A stretch of DNA of 33,896 nt from a virus (lineage: Duplodnaviria > Heunggongvirae > Uroviricota > Caudoviricetes), in the IMG/VR virus record IMGVR_UViG_2548876958_000018, one strand, 5' to 3'. The notes beneath the pieces are model-generated. The model was not told the DNA's origin and made no database searches. It saw only the letters and a program-made list of their open reading frames with translations. The position numbers and the translations under genes were made by a program. Shown piece by piece: positions 4,166 to 32,534 of the stretch (positions within the stretch are counted from its first letter, which is position 1; the number at the start of each line of letters is the position of its first letter).

Positions 4166-6427
4166 AGCCTCCGGGCGTTTTGTCCCTCCGTCAGCATTTG
4201 CCGCAGGCACCGGTAAGACGTTTACCGGTGCTTATGCATGGAACGCGCCACGCGAGGCCGTCGGGCGCGAAAGACCCCTTACACGTGACGAGATGCGTCA
4301 GGTGCAAGGTGTTTTATCCACGATTAACCGCCTGCCTTACTTTTTGCGCTCGCTGTTTACTTCACGCTATGACTACATCCGGCGCAATAAAAGCCCGGTG
4401 CACGGGTTTTATTTCCTCACATCCACTTTTCAGCGTCGTTTATGGCCGCGCATTGAGCGTGTGAATCAGCGCCATGAAATGAACACCGACGCGTCGTTGC
4501 TGTTTCTGGCAGAGCGTGATCACTATGCGCGCCTGCCGGGAATGAATGACAAGGAGCTGAAAAAGTTTGCCGCCCGTATCTCATCGCAGCTTTTCATGAT
4601 GTATGAGGAACTCAGCGATGCCTGGGTGGATGCGCATGGCGAGAAAGAATCACTGTTTACGGATGAGGCTCAGGATCACCTGTATGGTCATGTTGCTGGC
4701 GCTGCACGAGCTTTCAATATTTCCCCTCTCTACTGGAAAAAATACCGTAAAAGACAGATGACCACGAGGCAGGCATATTCTGCCATTGCCCGTCTGTTTA
4801 ACGATGAGTGGTGGACTCATCAGCTTAAAGGCCAGCGTATGCGCTGGCATGAAGCGTTACTGATAGCTGTCGGGGAGGTCAATAAAGACCGTTCTCCTTA
4901 TGCCAGTAAACACGCCATTCGTGATGTGCGTGCGCGCCGCCAGGCAAATCTGGAATTTCTTAAATCGTGTGACCTTGAAAACAGGGAAACCGGCGAGCGC
5001 ATCGACCTTATCAGTAAGGTGATGGGCAGTATTTCTAATCCTGAAATTCGCCGGATGGAGCTGATGAACACCATTGCCGGTATTGAGCGTTACGCCGCTG
5101 CAGAGGGTGATGTGGGGATGTTTATCACGCTGACCGCGCCGTCAAAGTATCACCCGACACGTCAGGTAGGAAAAGGCGAAAGTAAAACCGTGCAGCTTAA
5201 TCACGGCTGGAACGATGAGGCATTTAATCCAAAGGATGCGCAGCGTTATCTCTGCCGTATCTGGAGCCTGATGCGCACGGCATTCAAGGATAATGATTTA
5301 CAGGTCTACGGTTTGCGTGTCGTCGAGCCACACCACGACGGAACGCCGCACTGGCATATGATGCTTTTTTGTAATTCACGCCAGCGTAACCAGATTATCG
5401 AAATCATGCGTCGCTATGCGCTCAAAGAGGATGGCGACGAAAGAGGAGCCGCGCGAAACCGTTTTCAGGCAAAACACCTTAACCGGGGCGGTGCTGCGGG
5501 ATATATCGCGAAATACATTTCAAAAAACATCGACGGCTATGCACTGGATGGTCAGCTCGATAACGACACCGGCAGGCCGCTGAAAGACACTGCAGCGGCT
5601 GTTACCGCATGGGCGTCAACGTGGCGCATCCCGCAATTTAAAACGGTTGGCCTGCCGACAATGGGGGCTTACCGTGAACTACGCAAATTGCCGCGCGGCG
5701 TCAGCATTGCTGATGAGTTTGACGAGCGCGTCGAGGCTGCACGCGCCGCCGCAGACAGTGGTGATTTTGCGTTGTATATCAGCGCGCAGGGTGGGGCACA
5801 AATGTCCCGCGCGATTGTCAGACTGTCAGAGTCGCCCGTAGCCCGTCGGATGAAGTTAACGAGTACGAGGAAGAAGTCGAGAGAGTGGTCGGCATTTACG
5901 CGCCGCATCTCGGCGCGCGTCATATTCATATCACCAGAACGACGGACTGGCGCATTGTGCCGAAAGTGCCGGTCGTTGAGCCTTTGACTTTAAAAAGCGG
6001 CATCGCCGCGCCTCGGAGTCCTGTCAATAACTGTGGAAAGCTCACCGGTAGTGATGTTTCGTTACCGGCTCCCACACCTTCTGAGCACGCCGCCGCAGTG
6101 CTTAATCTGGTTGATGACGGTGTTATCGAATGGAATGACCAGGAGGTCGTGAGGGCGCTCAGGGGCGCATTAAAACACGACCTGAGAACACCAAACCGTC
6201 AGCAAAGAAGCGGAAGCCCGTTAAAACCGCATGAAATAGCGCCATCGGCCAGACTGACCCGGTCGGAACGAATGCAAATTACCCGTATCCGCGTTGACCT
6301 TGCTCAGAACGGTATCAGGCCGCAGCGATGGGAGCTTGAGGCGCTGGCGCGTGGGGCAACTGTAAATTACGACGGGAGAAGCTTCAGTTATCCTGTTATA
6401 TGTGATTGGAGAGCGTATGAATTATGA
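4155..6427 (+). pseudogene. A: rolling-circle replication initiator A (HUH endonuclease), interrupted by a -1 frameshift
   Basis: ATG at 4155 overlaps the upstream stop (ATGGCCGTTAA). HUH-type motif TPHWHMMLF and catalytic tyrosine motif GYIAKYISK are present. The reading frame switches between 5765 and 5987: the upstream frame runs to a stop at 5987, while the downstream frame (GTG 5885..6427) is open from 5765. Combined length of about 757 codons is close to P2 gpA (761 aa, from memory). Confidence 0.8.
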
Positions 6428-6482
6428 GATTGTGATAAAAAGTAAATAATTAATATAATGCAATTGCTTAACTGTTTTAAAA

Positions 6483-6513
6483 GGGACAACGTAGTTGTGA
6501 ACTATATTGTCCC
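6483..6513. terminator. hairpin between convergent A and endonuclease genes (possible bidirectional terminator)
   Basis: GGGACAA (6483..6489) pairs with TTGTCCC (6507..6513) across a 17-nt loop in an AT-rich spacer; no clean U-run, so weak. Confidence 0.25.
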
Positions 6514-6520
6514 GGGAGTA

Positions 6521-7576
6521 TTAATTTTTAAATATGGATTGTATGTATTCTATAGTGCTATCTTTAGCTCTGATGTCTTTTAAAGTGTTATTTATGAAAT
6601 CTATTATTCTGTCATTACTTAATAGTGGCGATAACGCATAACATGTTGTTGTGAATGTCATGACGTCACTAAAGCTTAGTGAAACACCTTTTGTCGCAGC
6701 GTTCTCAATCGCAAGAGACTCATCAATATCTAAGTTTGTTGCTCTTGGCCCTTTAAGGAAGATAACTTTTGAAATCCCGGATGCAGATGCTTTTGAAACG
6801 GCGTGATTAACATCTTGATAATTAAATGGTTTGTCTTTCACTTCTATAGAAAGGAAAACTATATCATCATGATATACATCTATGTCCAGTATCTCTTTTG
6901 AGGAGCTACCGGCCTGATTGACGGGATGTGCTTTTATTATCCATCCTCTTTGTTCACCTAATAAATGTAACGAAATTGCGGCAGCAATCGCGCATGTTTC
7001 TCCATCACAAGGATGAGATATAATATTATAAATAATCTTATGGAAATCAAAATTAATTGAGTTCGGCGTTATAACTCTATTGGTTCGCTGTAGGGTAAAA
7101 TATAATGCAATAACAAGCATTTCATAAGCTAAGGTTTGGGTTGTTGCTGCATGTAATATATCAATTGAAAGTTGTTGTAAAACCTTATCATTTCCTCTGC
7201 GCACAGGGTTATCAGAGGAGTGGAGCATGTAACGAGCTGGTTTATTTAGAAATGGCTCATTTGATGCGCCTAACTTACCCTCTAAAAATGGGCCTTCTAC
7301 TTTGCCTACTATTACCGAATGACATAAACTCCTTGCATCATAGGCTCCGTCTACGGGGGCATTAGCTTGTAAAGCCAGAGGGTTAACTCTAGGGTCTGTT
7401 GCTTTTGCAAGTAAACCAGTAATAAGTATATATCTGTATGTAAGGTGGGTGCCTAAAATTACATTTTGAATGGAGACCCATTGATTATTTGTTTTGTAAT
7501 CAGTTAATTTTTTTGCATCGTTGATTGCATTTATAATTACATTATAGGCTTGCTCATGATTTACTAATACTTTCAT
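6521..7576 (-). CDS. putative Type II restriction endonuclease (351 aa)
   Basis: AT-rich ORF directly downstream of, and overlapping by 23 bp, the HTH controller gene; divergent from the methyltransferase; PD-(D/E)xK-like signature DIDVYHDDIVFLSIEVKDK; RBS AAGGA 5 nt before the ATG. Confidence 0.6.
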   Translation of the reverse strand: MKVLVNHEQAYNVIINAINDAKKLTDYKTNNQWVSIQNVILGTHLTYRYILITGLLAKATDPRVNPLALQANAPVDGAYDARSLCHSVIVGKVEGPFLEGKLGASNEPFLNKPARYMLHSSDNPVRRGNDKVLQQLSIDILHAATTQTLAYEMLVIALYFTLQRTNRVITPNSINFDFHKIIYNIISHPCDGETCAIAAAISLHLLGEQRGWIIKAHPVNQAGSSSKEILDIDVYHDDIVFLSIEVKDKPFNYQDVNHAVSKASASGISKVIFLKGPRATNLDIDESLAIENAATKGVSLSFSDVMTFTTTCYALSPLLSNDRIIDFINNTLKDIRAKDSTIEYIQSIFKN

Positions 7577-7868
7577 AGGTGTCCTTTAGTAAGATATCCA
7601 TTGGTAGACCTAATCGGCTTGCAACCACCTCTAATAATTCAAATAGTTCTAAAGCATCTAATCGCCTTTCAAAGCTTTCGATTTTAGATATATCTGATTG
7701 TGATAATCCTAGAAAAATGGCCAATTCTGACTGCGAAAGAGAAGCTTCTTTGCGTAGTTTGGTGAGAAGCTGGACTAGGCACCTGTATCTATGATCATGT
7801 ATAGTTGGTTGTCGTTTTGCCATGTGGTTTAGAAGGTGATTGATTGTGTGTCGATCCTTACCTATCAT
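7554..7868 (-). CDS. controller (C) protein of the R-M system, XRE-family HTH
   Basis: 104-aa ORF with helix-turn-helix segment LSQSELAIFLGLSQSDISKIE; sits in the gap between divergent R and M genes, upstream of and overlapping R; alternative start at Met16 (7823). Confidence 0.65.
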   Translation of the reverse strand: MIGKDRHTINHLLNHMAKRQPTIHDHRYRCLVQLLTKLRKEASLSQSELAIFLGLSQSDISKIESFERRLDALELFELLEVVASRLGLPMDILLKDTYESISKS

Positions 7869-7873
7869 TGGTT

Positions 7874-7892
7874 TTATTCCAAAATCGAATAA
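7874..7892. promoter_or_regulatory. candidate operator (C-box-like inverted repeat) between controller and methyltransferase starts
   Basis: TTATTC-N7-GAATAA dyad at 7874..7892, immediately upstream of the controller start (7868) and before the methyltransferase GTG (7907). Confidence 0.3.
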
Positions 7893-7906
7893 TTGGTGCT
7901 AAAGAA

Positions 7907-8998
7907 GTGAACAAAATTTCAGCGGTGAGCTTATTTACTGGGGCAGGAGGGATGGATGTCGGTTTCTCTAATGCCGGGTTCCGAACAGTTTGGGCCAATG
8001 ATATAGATAAGGATGCATGTGATACATTTAAGCTTAATCATGAATCACCTGTTTTTTGTGGTGATATTGATGAGATGCTAAGTGAATTGTCTGGGCTGAA
8101 AAATATAGGTTGTGTTTTTGGTGGGCCTCCATGCCAAGGATTTTCTGTGGCAGGGAAAATGGACGCTCATGATCCACGTAGTAAGCTGGTTATGTCATTC
8201 ATGCGGGCGGTGGATATAATTCAACCAGAATGCTTTGTTATGGAGAATGTTAAGGCTTTAGCACAGTTGTCCAAATTTGAACCAGTTAGGTGTGAACTGT
8301 TTAAGATGGCTGAAAAGTCAGGCTATCGTTCAGCCTTGCTGGTGCTGAATTCTAAAGATTTTGGCGTTCCTCAGAATAGGGAACGTATGTTTTTTATAGG
8401 GTTTCGTTCCGAAAATGATGTGAAACGAGTTGAGGCGGCGATAAAAAAATACCAATATCTTTCGCCAACAGTTGGTGAGATTATTCGGCCTTTAGGGCGA
8501 GCGGGTAATCCAAATAATTCAAGAGTCTGTAATGCAAGGATTACAAATGCTGCTAAGCCAGTATTACGGAAGTCACCTTACGCGGGAATGATGTTTAACG
8601 GGCAGGGAAGACCAATTAACCCGAATGGGTATGCTTCAACTATAGCTGCTTCTATGGGGGGGAATAGGACACCAATTATTGATGAAGAACACCTTTATGA
8701 TGGCTCAACAAGTTATGTTGAGACTTATCATAATCATCTAATGAATGGTGGTGAGCCAAAAGATATGCACGATGTACCTAGTCGTTTACGTCGACTAACG
8801 ATAGATGAGGCTCTTTTGATTCAAACATTCCCGAGTAATTATGTCTTTGTGGGGAAAAATTCGTCAATTTGGCGTCAGATAGGGAATGCTGTGCCTTGTA
8901 AATTGGCGCAGGCTGTTGCTGCAGGGGTTTTGGATGTCCTTACTGGTAAAACTATTAATGTTCAAAAGAGTCAAACAGAGTTGAGTTTGAATTCGTAA
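7907..8998 (+). CDS. DNA (cytosine-5)-methyltransferase
   Basis: Motif I LFTGAGGMDVGF, motif IV GPPCQGFS, motif VI ENV, motif VIII QNRERMFFIG. Start taken as the in-frame GTG at 7907, which leaves a 330-bp gap to the R start; the track's TTG at 7844 (RBS-like AAGGTG 5 nt upstream) is an alternative that would overlap the controller gene. Confidence 0.9.
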   Translation: MNKISAVSLFTGAGGMDVGFSNAGFRTVWANDIDKDACDTFKLNHESPVFCGDIDEMLSELSGLKNIGCVFGGPPCQGFSVAGKMDAHDPRSKLVMSFMRAVDIIQPECFVMENVKALAQLSKFEPVRCELFKMAEKSGYRSALLVLNSKDFGVPQNRERMFFIGFRSENDVKRVEAAIKKYQYLSPTVGEIIRPLGRAGNPNNSRVCNARITNAAKPVLRKSPYAGMMFNGQGRPINPNGYASTIAASMGGNRTPIIDEEHLYDGSTSYVETYHNHLMNGGEPKDMHDVPSRLRRLTIDEALLIQTFPSNYVFVGKNSSIWRQIGNAVPCKLAQAVAAGVLDVLTGKTINVQKSQTELSLNS

Positions 8999-17647: not shown

Positions 17648-18077
17648 TGCCGTCACGGTGCTGAAAACTAACCCCGATATGCTGCGGATATTCGTGGATC
17701 ACGGGAGTATTGCCTCCACGCTGGCGGCGTCGTTGTCATTCGAAAAGCGTTACACGCTCAATGTCATTGTGACCGACTTTACCGGTGATTTTGACCTGCT
17801 CATCGTGCCGGTGCTGGCGTGGCTGCGGGTAAATCAGCCCGACATCATGACCACCGACGCAGGTCAGAAAAAGGGCTTCACGTTTTATGCAGACATCAAC
17901 AATGACAGCAGCTTTGATATCAGCATCAGCCTGATGCTGACCGAGCGAACGCTGGTCAGTGAGGTGGACGGCGCACTGCATGTGAAGAATATCCCGGAAC
18001 CTCCGCCGCCGGAGCCGGTCACCCGCCCGGTGGAGCTTTATATCAATGGCGAACTGGTGAGTAAGTGGGATGAATGA
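17610..18077 (+). CDS. R: tail completion protein R (155 aa)
   Basis: 155-aa ORF; size and order match P2 gpR. Confidence 0.7.
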   Translation: MLKPDSLRRALTDAVTVLKTNPDMLRIFVDHGSIASTLAASLSFEKRYTLNVIVTDFTGDFDLLIVPVLAWLRVNQPDIMTTDAGQKKGFTFYADINNDSSFDISISLMLTERTLVSEVDGALHVKNIPEPPPPEPVTRPVELYINGELVSKWDE

Positions 18078-18522
18078 GTTTAAGCGTTTTGAAGACCGGC
18101 TGACCGGGCTGATTGAATCGCTGTCACCGTCAGGGCGTCGGCGACTGAGCGCCGAACTGGCGAAACGTCTGCGTCAGAGTCAGCAGCGTCGGGTGATGGC
18201 ACAGAAAGCCCCGGACGGCACACCCTACGCGCCACGTCAGCAGCAGAGCGCCAGAAAAAAGACCGGTCGCGTTAAGCGAAAAATGTTTGCGAAACTTATC
18301 ACCAGTCGTTTTTTGCATATCCGCGCCAGCCCGGAACAGGCATCAATGGAATTTTACGGCGGGAAGTCGCCGAAAATCGCCAGTGTGCATCAGTTCGGTC
18401 TGTCGGAAGAAACCCGGAAAGACGGTAAGAAAATTGATTATCCGGCGCGTCCTCTGCTCGGCTTTACCGGTGAGGATGTGCAGATGATTGAAGAGATTAT
18501 CCTGGCTCACCTTGAGCGTTAG
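18070..18522 (+). CDS. S: tail completion protein S (150 aa)
   Basis: 150-aa ORF overlapping the R stop; size and order match P2 gpS. Confidence 0.7.
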   Translation: MNEFKRFEDRLTGLIESLSPSGRRRLSAELAKRLRQSQQRRVMAQKAPDGTPYAPRQQQSARKKTGRVKRKMFAKLITSRFLHIRASPEQASMEFYGGKSPKIASVHQFGLSEETRKDGKKIDYPARPLLGFTGEDVQMIEEIILAHLER

Positions 18523-18551
18523 TTTTATCCAGGCAGAGGCTGATGCGCAAT

Positions 18552-18588
18552 TAAACATTGAGCGGCCATGCTGGTCGCTCAATGTTTA
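18552..18588. terminator. long hairpin between convergent S and moron genes
   Basis: AAACATTGAGCG (18553..18564) pairs perfectly with CGCTCAATGTTT (18576..18587) across an 11-nt loop; no strong U-run, so terminator function uncertain. Confidence 0.35.
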
Positions 18589-18593
18589 GAGGT

Positions 18594-19379
18594 TTATGAG
18601 TGATTTTTATTTGATGCTTTGTATTCTACAACCTTCTTATTGGCGTAAAGGAATTTTGTATATGACAGGAATATAACCAGACCTGAAATGAAATAGATGA
18701 GGGATATTATTAATAATGCTTTTTTTTGGCTGTTATTATCTTTAATCTCCTGACTTAACCATTCCGAGTCCTCCTCGTTTAGCTGTAAGAGCTTATTGCA
18801 GGCGATCTCAGGAAGTGTGTCTTTTATAAATACGTTTCGTAGCCTCTTGCAATCGGCAAGGCTATAAGTTTTATTGAATTCAACTGTTTTATTGTTGAAG
18901 GATAAAAGAACTTTGTCACTATAAACATAGTACATCATATTTTTATATGGTATGCCTATGGCATCTCTTACTATAACGGATTGTTTGTTGTGTATATAAC
19001 ATGCGAAGAGAATATAAATAATGCTGGACAGAATTACAATTATTGTTTTAATTATGTGTGGTGGTTTTGTTATGTCACCCCAGAAGCGAGTAAGAAAAAA
19101 ATACGATGTTTTTAGTTTTCCATCAATCAGCCCCTGCTGTATCATTCTCACATCTTCGATGCCTGATACATTGATTCCGTTAATTATTTTAAATAGTTGA
19201 ATGTCGCGCCATTTTTTGTCGAGCATTTTTAACTTTCTGTCTGAATACTCAAAATTGAAATGATGTGCAATAAACCTCATAAGATTACTTTTACCAAAGG
19301 TAATAAATGTTAATGCTATTAATAAAAATAGATACAAAGAGATAAACCACCACGCATTAGTCACATTATCACTGAACAT
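18594..19379 (-). CDS. AT-rich moron: 261-aa membrane protein with three predicted TM helices, unknown function (P2 orf30 position)
   Basis: Antisense to the flanking tail operon; strongly AT-rich unlike neighbours; hydrophobic segments near residues 10-28, 112-130 and 221-240; no recognisable catalytic motif. Confidence 0.7.
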   Translation of the reverse strand: MFSDNVTNAWWFISLYLFLLIALTFITFGKSNLMRFIAHHFNFEYSDRKLKMLDKKWRDIQLFKIINGINVSGIEDVRMIQQGLIDGKLKTSYFFLTRFWGDITKPPHIIKTIIVILSSIIYILFACYIHNKQSVIVRDAIGIPYKNMMYYVYSDKVLLSFNNKTVEFNKTYSLADCKRLRNVFIKDTLPEIACNKLLQLNEEDSEWLSQEIKDNNSQKKALLIISLIYFISGLVIFLSYTKFLYANKKVVEYKASNKNHS

Positions 19380-19462
19380 TACGCTCTCCTCGAATGTTGT
19401 ATGGTCGTTCTACAAATGAATCCAGATAGCATAACTTTTATATATTGTGCAATCTCACACGC

Positions 19463-20098
19463 ATGAACACTCTCGCAAATATTCAGGAACTCGCGCGCGC
19501 ACTGCGCAACATGATTCGTACCGGCCTTGTCGTCGAAACCAACCTTAAAGCCGGTCGCTGCCGTGTGCAGACCGGTGGCATGTGCACTGACTGGCTTCAG
19601 TGGCTGACCCATCGTGCCGGACGTTCGCGCACATGGTGGGCACCTTCCGTGGGGGAGCAGGTGCTGATTCTGGCTGTGGGCGGTGAACTCGACACGGCGT
19701 TCGTTCTGCCGGGGATTTATTCCGGCGATAACCCCGCGCCGTCTGCGTCGGCGGATGCCCTGCATATCCGTTTCCCTGACGGGGCGGTGATTGAGTATGA
19801 ACCCGAAACCAGTGCACTCACGGTAAGCGGAATTAAAACGGCCAGCGTGACGGCTTCTGATTCTGTTACTGCCACGGTGCCGGTGGTCATGGTGAAAGCA
19901 TCAACCCGCGTCACCCTGGACACACCGGAGGTGGTCTGCACCAACAGGCTGATTACCGGCACGCTGGAAGTGCAGAAGGGCGGGACGATGCACGGCAACA
20001 TTGAACACACCGGCGGTGAACTCTCATCAAACGGTAAGGTACTGCATACCCATAAACACCCCGGCGACAGCGGCGGCACAACCGGGAGCCCTCTATGA
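19463..20098 (+). CDS. V: baseplate central spike protein (211 aa)
   Basis: ATG at 19463 gives 211 aa; first gene of the V-W-J-I-H-G operon. Confidence 0.8.
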   Translation: MNTLANIQELARALRNMIRTGLVVETNLKAGRCRVQTGGMCTDWLQWLTHRAGRSRTWWAPSVGEQVLILAVGGELDTAFVLPGIYSGDNPAPSASADALHIRFPDGAVIEYEPETSALTVSGIKTASVTASDSVTATVPVVMVKASTRVTLDTPEVVCTNRLITGTLEVQKGGTMHGNIEHTGGELSSNGKVLHTHKHPGDSGGTTGSPL

Positions 20099-21888: not shown

Positions 21889-23988
21889 ATGAGCACAAAA
21901 TTCAGAACCGTTATCACCACTGCTGGTGCAGCAAAGCTGGCAGCGGCAACCGCGCCGGGAGGGCGGAAGGTCAACATTACCACGATGGCCGTCGGGGATG
22001 GCGGTGGTAAATTGCCTGTCCCGGATGCCGGACAGACCGGGCTTATCCACGAAGTCTGGCGACATGCGCTGAACAAAATCAGCCAGGACAAACGAAACAG
22101 TAATTATATTATCGCAGAGCTGGTTATTCCGCCGGAGGTGGGCGGTTTCTGGATGCGTGAGCTTGGCCTGTACGATGATGCTGGAACGTTAATTGCCGTG
22201 GCGAACATGGCTGAAAGTTATAAGCCAGCTCTTGCCGAAGGCTCAGGGCGTTCGCAGACCTGCCGCATGGTCATCATCGTCAGCAGTGTGGCCTCAGTGG
22301 CGCTGACCATTGACACCACAACGGTGATGGCAACGCAGGATTACGTTGATGACAAAATTGCAGAACATGAACAGTCACGACGTCACCCGGACGCCTCGCT
22401 GACCGCCAAAGGTTTTACTCAGTTAAGCAGTGCGACCAACAGCACGTCTGAAACACTCGCCGCAACACCAAAAGCGGTAAAAGCAGCATATGACCTTGCT
22501 AACGGGAAATACACTGCACAGGACGCCACCACCGCGCGAAAAGGCCTTGTCCAGCTCAGTAGCGCCACCAACAGCGATTCTGAAACGCTTGCGGCAACGC
22601 CAAAGGCGGTTAAGACAGCGTATGACCTTGCTAACGGGAAATACACTGCACAGGATGCCACCACAGCGCGAAAAGGTCTTGTCCAGCTCAGTAGCGCCAC
22701 CAACAGTGATTCTGAAACGCTGGCTGCAACACCAAAAGCGGTGAAGTCTGCCTATGACAATGCTGAAAAACGTCTTCAGAAAGATCAGAACGGCGCGGAT
22801 ATTCCTGATAAAGATCGCTTCCTGAGTAACATTAATGTTTACAGCAAAGGCGAGGTGGATAAGAAAAAAGGAATGCGGCTGTACGTATTTAACGCGCCGT
22901 CTAATGCTGTTGGTGGAAAGTGGTATCCAGTTATTTTCCGGCGTTCCACTGGTAGCACTGGCGAACTGGCTTCCAGAGTGGTTATTACAACCACATCTGC
23001 CGGTGGTGATTACGCAATGAATAACTGCGAATTTAATGGAATGGTAATGCCCGGAGGTTGGACTGATCGTGGTTCATATGCAGCAGGTTATTTTTCGACA
23101 TATCAGACTAATGAGCGCGCAATCCATTCCATTGTAACAAGCCTGAAAGAAGATGATGTATGCAGCGTTTTTTACGTTGAAGGCAGGGCTTTTCCTGTGC
23201 GAGTTTTTGCCGAAGAAGGGCTAACGGTTATTGTTCCAACTCAGGATTATACCGTCGGTCAAACAACATATAAGTGGGGAGCAACTAATCCCGCGACAGA
23301 AAGCACGAACGCACAAGCCATTCTGGATTTTAACAATGGGCGAGGGTTTTATTGTTCTCACTCAATATTCGGTATTAATGCCATTTTTAGCGGAAATCTG
23401 GGGATTGGAACGGCTAATGCCCTGGGTGGAAATTCAATAGTTTTAGGAGATAACGATACCGGGTTTAAACAAAATGGTGATGGGGTGCTGGATGCTTATG
23501 CTAATGGTGTGCATGTATTCCGCTTTATAAATGGTTCAGCAAGATCATTAAAGGGTATTCAGGCTGGGGAAAGTAAGTTCTTCACACTTTCAAGTGCAAA
23601 TACCGCTGCCCGTAATGCATCATTTAACTTGTGGGGAAATTCGTCAAGACCAACTGTTGCAGAGCTTGGTGATGATTCAGGCTGGCATTTCTATAGTCAG
23701 CGAAATACAGATAACTCGGTGATATTTGCTGTAAACGGTCAGATACAACCAAGCAACTGGGATAACATTGATTCCCGATATGTGAAAGATGTTCGGCTTG
23801 GCTCACAGCAATATTATGGTGTGAACAACTGGCAAACATGGAACTTTCAGTGCCCTTCAGGTCATGTATTGTCTGGTATAAATGTTCAGGATACAGGTTC
23901 CAACTCCGCCGATAATATTGCGGGTGTTTATTACAGACCCGTTCAAAAGTATATAAATGGCACATGGTATAATGTAGCGAGCGTTTAA
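21889..23988 (+). CDS. H: tail fiber protein (699 aa), mosaic with internal tandem repeats
   Basis: Large ORF after I; N-terminal part GC-rich like the rest of the phage, C-terminal about 1.2 kb AT-rich with a Gly/Asn/Ser-rich distal domain; followed by the fiber assembly gene. Confidence 0.85.
22423..22758 (+). repeat. in-frame tandem repeat inside H: 132-bp unit, about 2.5 copies
   Basis: 44-aa unit LSSATNS(T/D)[12 protein letters not shown](A/T)[23 protein letters not shown] repeated from 22423, 22555 and 22687, with a few substitutions. Confidence 0.8.
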
Positions 23989-24738: not shown

Positions 24739-25332
24739 ATGTTTACTAAGCGACGATTAAAAAATATTAACTGGGAGGCAAGTTCAGTGATTCTTGCTAT
24801 GGTTCTCTTTGCTGGAAATATATTTTATACAAATCATCGTGATGATATAAGCATGGAGGCTGAGAGAGACAGTATCAGAACAATGTTTGCATATGAAATC
24901 GCTAATAACCATCGCGCTCTCACCTTTCTTGATAAAACGAGAAATATTGGCTTTGACGAAAATTCGGAGCATTTTGTTGGCGAGCCTTTTGCCATTAATG
25001 TCAAATCATCAGGGGGACCTCGCTTACAGATTGCATTAAACCAGACTGATAAAGTGTTTAAATCATACTTCAGCGAATTAAGTAAGCTTGATAAAGAGGA
25101 TGTTACTCTTCTTATGGACTATTACCATGAGCAAAGCATCCTGCTGGAGCGTGTAAAATCTACGTTACAGAAGATGAAAAGTGGTAATGATATTAAAGTT
25201 GATATTGATGGTTACTTATTAGAAGAACACTTCATGAATGAGCTTAATCTTTCTAATATTTTGCTTAAACGCTATAGCTATTTATTATCACAGCACGCTA
25301 AAGAACATAAAACAAAAGATTTACATAATTGA
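24739..25332 (+). CDS. AT-rich moron: 197-aa protein with one N-terminal TM anchor, unknown function (P2 Z/fun position)
   Basis: Preceded by a 220-bp AT-rich spacer; N-terminal hydrophobic segment SSVILAMVLFAGNIFY, then a charged, probably helical domain; lies between G and FI. Confidence 0.7.
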   Translation: MFTKRRLKNINWEASSVILAMVLFAGNIFYTNHRDDISMEAERDSIRTMFAYEIANNHRALTFLDKTRNIGFDENSEHFVGEPFAINVKSSGGPRLQIALNQTDKVFKSYFSELSKLDKEDVTLLMDYYHEQSILLERVKSTLQKMKSGNDIKVDIDGYLLEEHFMNELNLSNILLKRYSYLLSQHAKEHKTKDLHN

Positions 25333-32299: not shown

Positions 32300-32362
32300 G
32301 TCGATGTGGTCAATGTGTGGACGTGACCAGAAATAAATCCTTTTATTTCATTGTATTACGCG

Positions 32363-32390
32363 TAAAAAATAAGCCCGTGTAAGGGAGATT
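32363..32390. repeat. attR core: 28-bp direct repeat overlapping the cyaR 3' terminator
   Basis: identical to 476..503. Confidence 0.85.
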
Positions 32391-32450
32391 ACACAGGCTA
32401 AGGAGGTGGTTCCTGGTACAGCTAGCATTTTATGGGTTATGTTTTTCAGC
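32364..32450 (-). ncRNA. cyaR: CyaR (RyeE) Hfq-dependent small RNA
   Basis: Minus-strand sequence GCTGAAAAACATAACCCATAAAATGCTAGCTGTACCAGGAACCACCTCCTTAGCCTGTGTAATCTCCCTTACACGGGCTTATTTTTT matches the CyaR sequence as I recall it, including the terminator hairpin and U-tail; adjacent to yegQ as in E. coli. Confidence 0.85.
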
Positions 32451-32534
32451 GAAACGGATGATAACCTTAATAAATGCAGCTGTATGTGATCGGTTTCTAA
32501 GAATTTTCCATCCGGGAAAAATAATCGAAATTAA

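Follow-up and report, generated by a model that had tools for sequence, protein, structure and literature searches.

The antisense gene between the tail genes S and V of a P2-like prophage is orf30, a candidate anti-phage membrane protein

What does an AT-rich gene for a membrane protein do on the opposite strand between the tail genes of a P2-like phage? The question is raised by an open reading frame (ORF) of 261 amino acids (aa) in the virus record IMGVR_UViG_2548876958_000018, of which the whole stretch of 33,896 nucleotides (nt) was analysed and is called the window here. An earlier interpretation of the letters without database searches, referred to below as the sequence-only reading, had described an antisense, AT-rich gene at 18594..19379 encoding three transmembrane (TM) helices, inserted between S and V and perhaps acting in abortive infection or superinfection exclusion. 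The gene is the local allele of P2 orf30, and its product might be an anti-phage protein of the bacterial envelope.

The ORF is present as described and starts with an ATG, 6 nt downstream of the Shine-Dalgarno sequence GAGGAG (19386-19391, minus strand). The remark on its composition was equally correct, as its GC content is 0.322 (0.355 at third codon positions) compared with 0.57-0.59 in the neighbouring genes. In DNA of 32% GC, with a stop frequency of about 0.076 per codon, the chance of an open frame of 261 codons is estimated at about 1e-9. When the segment 18400-19600 was compared with phage genomes by megablast, the entire stretch was found in 20 Peduovirus records, the closest published phage allele being that of Peduovirus P24A7b with 99.6% DNA identity. 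Bacteriophage P2 is 93% identical to the window in DNA across S-orf30-V, with the flanks identical in order, and its own Orf30 (AF063097 9439..10224, AAD03281, also 261 aa), which is annotated as 'nonessential' in GenBank, shares 85% protein identity with the window protein. In addition, residues 1-261 match positions 1-261 of phrog_2407 (function unknown) with an E value of 8e-144; both the full-length similarity and the antisense position between S and V place the protein in the P2 Orf30 orthologous group represented by this profile. What was flagged is P2 orf30 in the allelic form of this prophage. The gene was annotated long ago and is no new discovery. The sequence-only reading had pointed to orf30 of P2 as a gene in the corresponding position; the position is right, but the ORF is orf30 itself and not a mere analogue. 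Both proteins have the same length, antisense S-V position, hairpin and pV control region, and only allelic differences separate them, which are concentrated in the N-terminus, TM1 and TM2.

Orf30 is listed as 'unknown' in the literature (PMC3091744; PMC6823313), and the three places where P2-like phages are recognised to have acquired genes horizontally are the orf30, TO and Z/fun regions (PMC3091744). Studies of P2 hotspots (PMC9122126; PMC13586616; bioRxiv 10.1101/2024.10.15.618418) treat other loci without mention of orf30, and a specific account of the S-V slot was not found in them.

Substitution rates were calculated according to Nei and Gojobori from nine alleles, of which two come from E. 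coli prophages and seven from the window, P2 and five other phages. The ratio of nonsynonymous to synonymous substitutions (dN/dS) was 0.46 for orf30, 0.084 for S and about 0.12 for V (in the case of V for P2 and the other seven alleles only), and the mean dN of orf30 was about nine times that of S. In detail, the ratio was 1.27 for the N-terminus with TM1, 0.34 for loop 1, 0.66 for TM2, 0.28 for loop 2 and 0.51 for TM3 with the tail. orf30 is a real gene, fast-evolving and under purifying but weak selection. Its DNA is present in 464 of 5426 complete E. coli genomes (8.6%), always in the chromosome and always labelled 'hypothetical protein', and it is full length in 461 of these 464. P2-type S genes were found at 1803 places in 1576 E. 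coli genomes and are accompanied by orf30 at 482 of these places, which corresponds to about 27% of P2-type prophages. A functionless passenger, i.e. a horizontally acquired AT-rich ORF that merely persists, would agree with a gene that is non-essential in P2 and whose dN/dS is relaxed compared with its neighbours. However, the ORF is intact in nearly all carrier genomes, both loops have ratios well below 1, the architecture, a family motif and a cysteine pair (see below) are kept down to 17-25% identity, and phage genome size is constrained by packaging, all of which makes such a passenger highly improbable.

According to the sequence-only reading the gene interrupts the late tail operon. In the P2 record, S closes the O operon and V heads its own Ogr-activated operon (V, W, J, I, H, G), for which an 'activator binding site; activation of pV promoter' is annotated in the orf30-V spacer. 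Since S and V belong to different late operons, orf30 is flanked by the O-operon terminator on one side and the pV promoter on the other, and no operon is interrupted. The start of V is the ATG at 19463 and not the TTG at 19445 proposed by the ORF finder. The hairpin that had been noted next to the gene (18552..18588, with a stem of 12 bp) is real, only its stem is longer, with 13 perfect pairs and 18 pairs on extension, including one G-U. The segment 18540-18600 folds with -29.7 kcal/mol on the plus strand (z -6.45; as good a fold was reached by none of 200 shuffles) and with -21.3 kcal/mol on the minus strand (z -4.67). P2's GenBank entry labels it 'putative rho-independent terminator for O operon'; our terminator scan did not call it, as it has no T-run of 5 in 8. 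Among the nine alleles, Jukes-Cantor distances were 0.024 for the hairpin spacer (71 nt) and 0.026 for the control spacer, which includes an invariant block of 49 nt, compared with a dS of 0.157 for orf30. Being far more conserved than synonymous sites, both flanking spacers appear to be functional sequence.

This arrangement bears on the suggestion that Orf30 helps P2's own lytic cycle, be it in lysis timing like the non-essential membrane protein LysA or by blocking the injection of progeny into infected or lysing cells. The gene has the late promoter pV as a neighbour and is 1.5 kb downstream of the lysis cassette, and in several relatives its end abuts or overlaps S without an intervening terminator (3 nt in L012, 11 nt in L101, an overlap in L099), suggesting that its expression might somehow be coupled to late transcription. 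However, orf30 is antisense to both late operons, and late expression driven by Ogr from the dyad-like activator site was rejected because this site is only 15 nt from the ATG (its centre about 28 nt), whereas sites of this kind act on starts about 55 nt downstream, so that the start would come to lie within orf30. Furthermore, the protein does not look like a holin or antiholin: it has 261 aa, where about 70-150 aa would be usual, and two loops of 80-90 residues, its gene is on the opposite strand and not part of the Y-K-lysABC cassette, and no holin or antiholin family of Pfam or PHROGs was matched. As, in addition, about 63% of the close relatives do without the gene in this slot and are still viable phages, and a lone copy in Enterobacter cloacae has no phage to help (both described below), a function in the lytic cycle is very unlikely.

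For a first census of the slot, 79 viral contigs were taken whose gpS is at least 99% identical to that of the window. This comparison of occupancy, which the sequence-only reading had proposed, found the slot empty in 50 of the 79 and occupied by orf30 in 21, while the other eight carry a 389-aa protein (five), a 280-aa protein (two) or a 253-nt spacer (one). Empty slots contain an unrelated spacer of about 66-69 bp, which measures 69 nt in these 50 contigs. The 389-aa protein is antisense and has two C-terminal TM helices (L035, L041, L053, L056 and L089; slot of 1271 nt), and cargo of this two-TM type with 377-389 aa occurs in two phage clades, including L119. The 280-aa protein is antisense as well and soluble (L042 and L051; slot of 1043 nt). 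Neither the two-TM protein of 377-389 aa nor the 280-aa protein gave a PADLOC match, and the 389-aa and 280-aa proteins had no Pfam match either.

In the alignment with the empty-slot phage S164, identity is lost a few bases past the S stop and regained at the V ATG, and no repeats or target duplications were found at the cassette junctions. A transposon-like insertion was rejected, as its ends lack such a duplication or repeat and the whole spacer is replaced. This swap of a whole spacer without junction repeats fits an exchange by recombination in the conserved flanks. The empty-slot phages (S164, L002 1624-1689, compared with window 18523-19462) are without the P2-type O-operon hairpin; there, the S stop is directly followed by an activator half-site (TGTGCCAT...), and V is preceded at a short distance by a different hairpin, which is GC-rich. 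As the empty-slot spacer differs in this way, the P2-type cassette comes with a terminator of its own and likewise with its particular version of the pV control region. According to the definition of morons used here, which is said to go back to Juhala et al. in 2000, such genes are variably present at a fixed site between conserved genes and deviate in base composition, and orf30 does both. As to an own terminator, a stable conserved hairpin follows right after the orf30 stop, with termination predicted from its folding.

A second clade was seeded with a Yersinia-type gpS. Its slot carries Orf30-family genes in five loci, an 8xMP (PF24838) membrane protein without PADLOC match in two loci (L106 and L107) and about ten further cargoes of unknown function with a GC content of 0.32-0.41. 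A PARIS-like (AriA/AriB-like) pair, consisting of an AAA_15/AAA_21 ATPase and a DUF4435 protein (PADLOC AriA up to E 3e-41), was found in L123, L125 and L128, and a Thoeris-like pair of a 2-TM ThsA_Macro and a ThsB_TIR protein in L117 (slot 4444-6248). Recurrent cargo of other types (the two-TM, 280-aa and 8xMP proteins) is AT-rich and mostly antisense. That sister phages keep PARIS-like and Thoeris-like systems in this very slot would lend moderate support to an anti-phage role of orf30.

The same slot also houses the distant relatives of Orf30. Close homologues form 5 clusters at 90% identity in a collection of 5.8 billion sequences. A profile search of 1.84 billion representatives gave 44 relatives at E <= 1e-3, of which about 25 have the full length of 250-270 aa; these are 17-39% identical to the window protein, originate from Enterobacter, Pectobacterium, Yersinia, Cronobacter and E. 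coli and are all annotated as 'hypothetical'. A word-indexed protein search with the wide alignment returned 7 proteins only, a scan of genome contigs with the close-family profile found no relatives, and when P0042, the distant member from E. coli, was compared with the phage collection by tblastn, no match was obtained. Six of the eight members whose context was examined are located in the S-V slot in antisense orientation (Table 1). Compared with the window, these six slot phages show 47-51% identity in S, 72-84% in V and 22-37% in the Orf30 relative, the latter value being that of the top local alignment by tblastn, in two of the six over a part of the protein only. Every sampled family member has a GC content of 0.32-0.36, whatever that of its flanks (0.46-0.63). 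As all diverged members are equally AT-rich, the low GC content is a maintained property and no sign of recent import, and AT-richness was accordingly dropped as proof of a recent acquisition. Judged by these divergences, the Orf30 family is an old, fast-diverging occupant of the S-V slot and not a recent import. The term 'inserted' used in the sequence-only reading is thus apt for optional slot cargo, but not for an old resident with diverged relatives in the same slot of Yersinia, Pectobacterium, Cronobacter and E. coli phages.

Pfam DUF6216 (PF19723) was matched by 5 of the 25 family members with a best E value of 8.7e-7, three of them being colinear over most of their length. The two families are similar in length (the profile has 270 positions), and residues 43-235 of P0041, for example, correspond to profile positions 50-255. 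However, the individually listed relatives score 12-22 bits, which is under the gathering cut-off of 27.3 bits, and the window protein gave no match and is no member at this cut-off. DUF6216 is itself uncharacterised, and the single publication found to name it appears to deal with something other than its function.

One family member has left the phage context. The window contains a complete P2-like prophage of about 31.9 kb between attachment (att) repeats of 35 nt (469-503 and 32356-32390, 94% identical), with host chromosome outside the repeats, and the prophage is integrated at the 3' end of the small RNA (sRNA) gene cyaR (32367-32452, minus strand; Rfam 100.7 bits). In E. cloacae, P0031 (L014 4769-5879) is found intact and alone between cyaR (Rfam 101.5 bits) and yegS. 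Homology between E. cloacae and E. coli K-12 stops exactly at the cyaR 3' end and resumes at yegS, and in K-12 this interval is filled by the P2 remnant PR-X (ogrK, yegZ), which starts inside the 3' end of cyaR. All 24 E. cloacae contigs that were read share the same neighbours, and the members of the cluster are found on 60-96 contigs each. No att duplication remains around the lone copy, which is presumed, from its position alone, to be the sole surviving gene of a decayed P2-like prophage. Since it was kept without a phage, its protein might benefit the host independently of the rest of the phage.

Such a benefit could also lie in a lysogenic conversion unrelated to phages, with Orf30 acting in envelope physiology, e.g. 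in relation to colicins, contact-dependent toxins, envelope stress or colonisation fitness. That E. cloacae has kept the gene alone in its chromosome, the prophage itself presumably having been lost, would be in line with this, as would the chromosomal copies in 8.6% of the complete E. coli genomes and a sequence without any specific tie to phages. However, the characterised accessory genes of P2 and the recognisable cargo of the slot are anti-phage, and the fast evolution of the protein, with its peak in the N-terminus and TM1, resembles an arms race more, so that we regard a conversion factor of this kind as distinctly unlikely.

The architecture of the protein suggests where it might act. 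The three TM helices of the sequence-only reading correspond to three peaks in the Kyte-Doolittle profile (19 residues) of 2.14 (aa 11-29), 2.49 (aa 109-127) and 2.58 (aa 221-239). Its statement that enzymatic motifs are absent was correct as well. Pfam and NCBIfam searches returned noise only (a DUF6535 match to the N-terminal TM region with E 7.8e-4, below the cut-off), and PADLOC gave no meaningful match either. In the alignment of 25 family members, G68, G87, C194 and I212 are invariant and G29, Q61, D76 and K254 nearly so, and loop 1 carries the motif D-x-Q-L-F-[RK]-x3-G-[IV]-N-V-x4-D-A...G-x-L. Mean net charges are -1.6 for the N-terminus, with 0.0 Lys/Arg, +5.0 for loop 1, -0.1 for loop 2 and +1.8 for the tail. 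Loop 2 contains exactly two cysteines in 25 of 25 members, compared with a mean of 0.36 in loop 1; the second occupies one invariant column, whereas the first is found in a single column in 22 members and is shifted by three columns towards the N-terminus in the other 3. From these features we infer an inner-membrane protein with the N-terminus and loop 2 in the periplasm and loop 1 and the tail in the cytoplasm (N-out, C-in). Loop 2 probably carries a disulfide bond between C177 and C194. As in the superinfection-exclusion class, a location in the inner membrane is predicted, here from three strong TM segments and the charge bias.

An AlphaFold2 model built from the 25-sequence alignment reached a mean predicted local distance difference test score (pLDDT) of 87 and a predicted template modelling score (pTM) of 0.76. 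In the model, TM1 is extended to a long helix (residues 4-40), three short helices are seen in loop 1, loop 2 consists of a four-stranded sheet (141-173) and two helices, and a helix of 59 residues (202-260) extends from the periplasm through TM3 to the cytoplasm. A fold search of this model against PDB and BFVD found no match, the top-ranked entries being membrane proteins of the Claudin/TARP type, and a profile search of the PDB sequences gave no match to Orf30.

Membrane helices combined with two conserved soluble domains would also fit a sensor and effector in one chain, i.e. an abortive-infection effector that is idle in the inner membrane and, on sensing infection through the cytoplasmic loop or the periplasmic domain, oligomerises and depolarises or permeabilises the membrane, so that the cell dies before phage release. 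The slot holds PARIS-like and Thoeris-like systems of the abortive type as well as the membrane proteins 8xMP and the two-TM protein of 377-389 aa, which is in agreement with such an effector. On the other hand, Orf30 bears no likeness to known membrane effectors or PADLOC models, its conserved and presumably disulfide-bearing periplasmic domain suits an action at the envelope more than sensing in the cytoplasm, and the lone copy fixed in E. cloacae implies that the protein is not overtly toxic. We therefore consider abortive killing unlikely.

Our favoured, though tentative, interpretation is that orf30 encodes an anti-phage protein which is expressed from the prophage and acts at the level of the envelope, most likely by superinfection exclusion; we would give it a little less than an even chance. 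In the lysogen, with the late operons on either side switched off, Orf30 would be produced from the prophage; during lytic growth, late transcripts that converge on the gene or overlap it might lower its expression. The protein would shield the lysogen from other phages at the envelope, where the periplasmic domain might meet the incoming phage and hinder the entry of its genome or act against an entry factor of the inner membrane, and the cytoplasmic loop, which is conserved, could anchor or regulate the protein or transduce a response. Exclusion is favoured because a conserved periplasmic domain with a predicted disulfide suits contact with the entry machinery. A role in abortive infection or superinfection exclusion, as the sequence-only reading had proposed, would be made more plausible by the cargo of the slot, the fast evolution and the lone E. 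cloacae copy.

Several observations weigh against an anti-phage role or at least against this form of it. PADLOC-DB v2 contained 0 families matching Orf30 at E <= 10, and its use with the 25 relatives produced one stray weak match (HamA, E 0.0067). Half of the cargo types of the slot have no assigned function, so that guilt by association is moderate. The charge bias near the membrane, with 1.6-2.1 Lys/Arg on both sides of TM2, does not cleanly separate the large loops, and the topology rests mainly on the cysteine pair and net charge for this reason. Exclusion and abortive infection cannot be told apart from sequence. No experiment on orf30 and no function for it were found in the searchable literature. 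The weakest link of the defence reading is expression: the sequence-only reading had bracketed the gene by its own upstream region, but no convincing sigma-70 promoter was found there in the P2-type spacer. Two distant relatives have a reasonable candidate pair of -35 and -10 elements 23-24 nt before the start codon.

Taken together, it seems reasonable to regard orf30 as a good defence candidate that is better supported than before. The Orf30 family as a whole could be a new single-protein anti-phage system with a fold unmatched in PDB and BFVD, a long-standing resident of a defence hotspot between S and V that was kept as a lone gene at the E. cloacae cyaR site, a view that in our opinion falls just short of being as probable as its opposite. 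P2 is among the best-studied temperate phages, and orf30 is among its few annotated genes without a role in the searchable literature; PARIS-like and Thoeris-like slot cargo elsewhere and the lone E. cloacae copy give a reason to consider an anti-phage one. If true, this would add a membrane-based family to the known defences and mark the S-V slot as a source of further systems, including the two-TM protein of 377-389 aa, the 280-aa protein and the other unknowns.

Other variable regions of the window were also inspected. The AT-rich cos-proximal (old/tin) hotspot at 6521-8998 contains a type II restriction-modification module. In the Z/fun slot (GC content about 0.34-0.40), positions 24739-25332 (plus strand) encode a 197-aa protein with an N-terminal hydrophobic segment, as judged by eye, and without Pfam match; this gene is the second uncharacterised cargo gene of the prophage. 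The tail-fibre gene H (21889-23988) contains three tandem repeats of 132 nt (22408-22764) that are 75-82% identical and whose translation repeats a 'KG(F/L)x...' unit.

Table 1. Features of the S-V region, the Orf30 protein and other loci considered in this analysis. Positions refer to the window unless a locus or a family member is named.
Feature	Position	Strand	Basis or remark
S, tail-completion gene at the end of the O operon; conserved left flank	18070..18522	+	ORF; P2 annotation AF063097
Variable S-V cassette, about 936 bp, GC about 0.34	18527..19462		Alignments with empty-slot phage S164
Hairpin, candidate bidirectional terminator between convergent S and orf30	18551..18589		Folding; P2 annotation
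orf30 coding sequence, 261 aa	18594..19379	-	phrog_2407; P2 orthology; dN/dS; intact in 461/464 carriers
Divergent control region, 83 nt, orf30 ATG to V ATG	19380..19462		P2 annotation mapped; conservation
Ogr activator site of pV late promoter	about 19394-19421		P2 annotation mapped
V, baseplate-spike gene at the head of the V operon; conserved right flank	19463..20098	+	ORF; P2 annotation
TM1, aa 10-28, after short acidic N-terminus without Lys/Arg (predicted periplasmic)	19296..19352	-	Hydropathy; family charge
Loop 1, aa 29-108, predicted cytoplasmic helical domain	19056..19295	-	Net charge; family motif; AlphaFold2 helices 48-67, 74-86, 91-94
TM2, aa 109-130	18990..19055	-	Hydropathy 2.49; model helix 109-133
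Loop 2, aa 131-220, predicted periplasmic, four beta strands and helices	18720..18989	-	Cysteines; model strands 141-173
C177	18849-18851	-	Loop 2 cysteine
C194	18798-18800	-	Loop 2 cysteine, invariant
TM3, aa 221-242, within single helix 202-260	18654..18719	-	Hydropathy 2.58; model
C-terminal tail, aa 243-261, basic and predicted to be cytoplasmic; K254 almost invariant	18597..18653	-	Alignment; charge
Family member P0042 (E. coli)			Antisense, S-V slot
Family member P0026 (Yersinia)			Antisense, S-V slot
Family member P0023 (Pectobacterium)			In S-V slot, plus three extra genes on S side
Family member P0006			Antisense, S-V slot
Family member P0036 (Cronobacter)			In S-V slot, plus two extra genes on V side
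Family member P0041			Antisense, S-V slot
Family member P0005 (Enterobacter)			Contig end
Family member P0031 (E. cloacae)			Outside any phage
PARIS-like slot cargo	L123/L125 about 4444-6845; L128 1057-3563		
SacI-family endonuclease	6521-7576	-	E 1.9e-76
HTH controller-like protein	7554-7868	-	
C5 cytosine methyltransferase	7844-8998	+	E 1.3e-66

What is new here is the definition of the Orf30 family, its topology model, its conserved residues and a confident structure model without known relatives. Among the known cargo of P2, Old is a soluble nuclease-ATPase, Tin targets replication proteins of T-even phages, and fun(Z) blocks T5. Like orf30, these genes are dispensable cargo carried by P2 in its variable slots; however, there is no sequence relationship, and Orf30 is a membrane protein without enzymatic motif. 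Anti-phage activity of old and tin, two genes of phage exclusion, has been confirmed (PMC9122126), and fun(Z) is listed as 'phage exclusion' (PMC3091744).

Tab of phage JBD26 was considered as a relative and dismissed as irrelevant, being a protein of 83 aa encoded between the terminase genes of a Mu-like phage. A closer parallel is gp15 of HK97, reportedly described by Cumby et al. in 2012 as an inner-membrane moron for superinfection exclusion. Morons of this type show no homology to Orf30 by Pfam, PHROGs, PADLOC or fold search, and Orf30 is much larger, with three TM helices and two folded loops. Nevertheless, gp15 is said to be likewise an inner-membrane protein without enzymatic domain, encoded among the tail genes of a temperate phage, and might therefore be a plausible model for Orf30.

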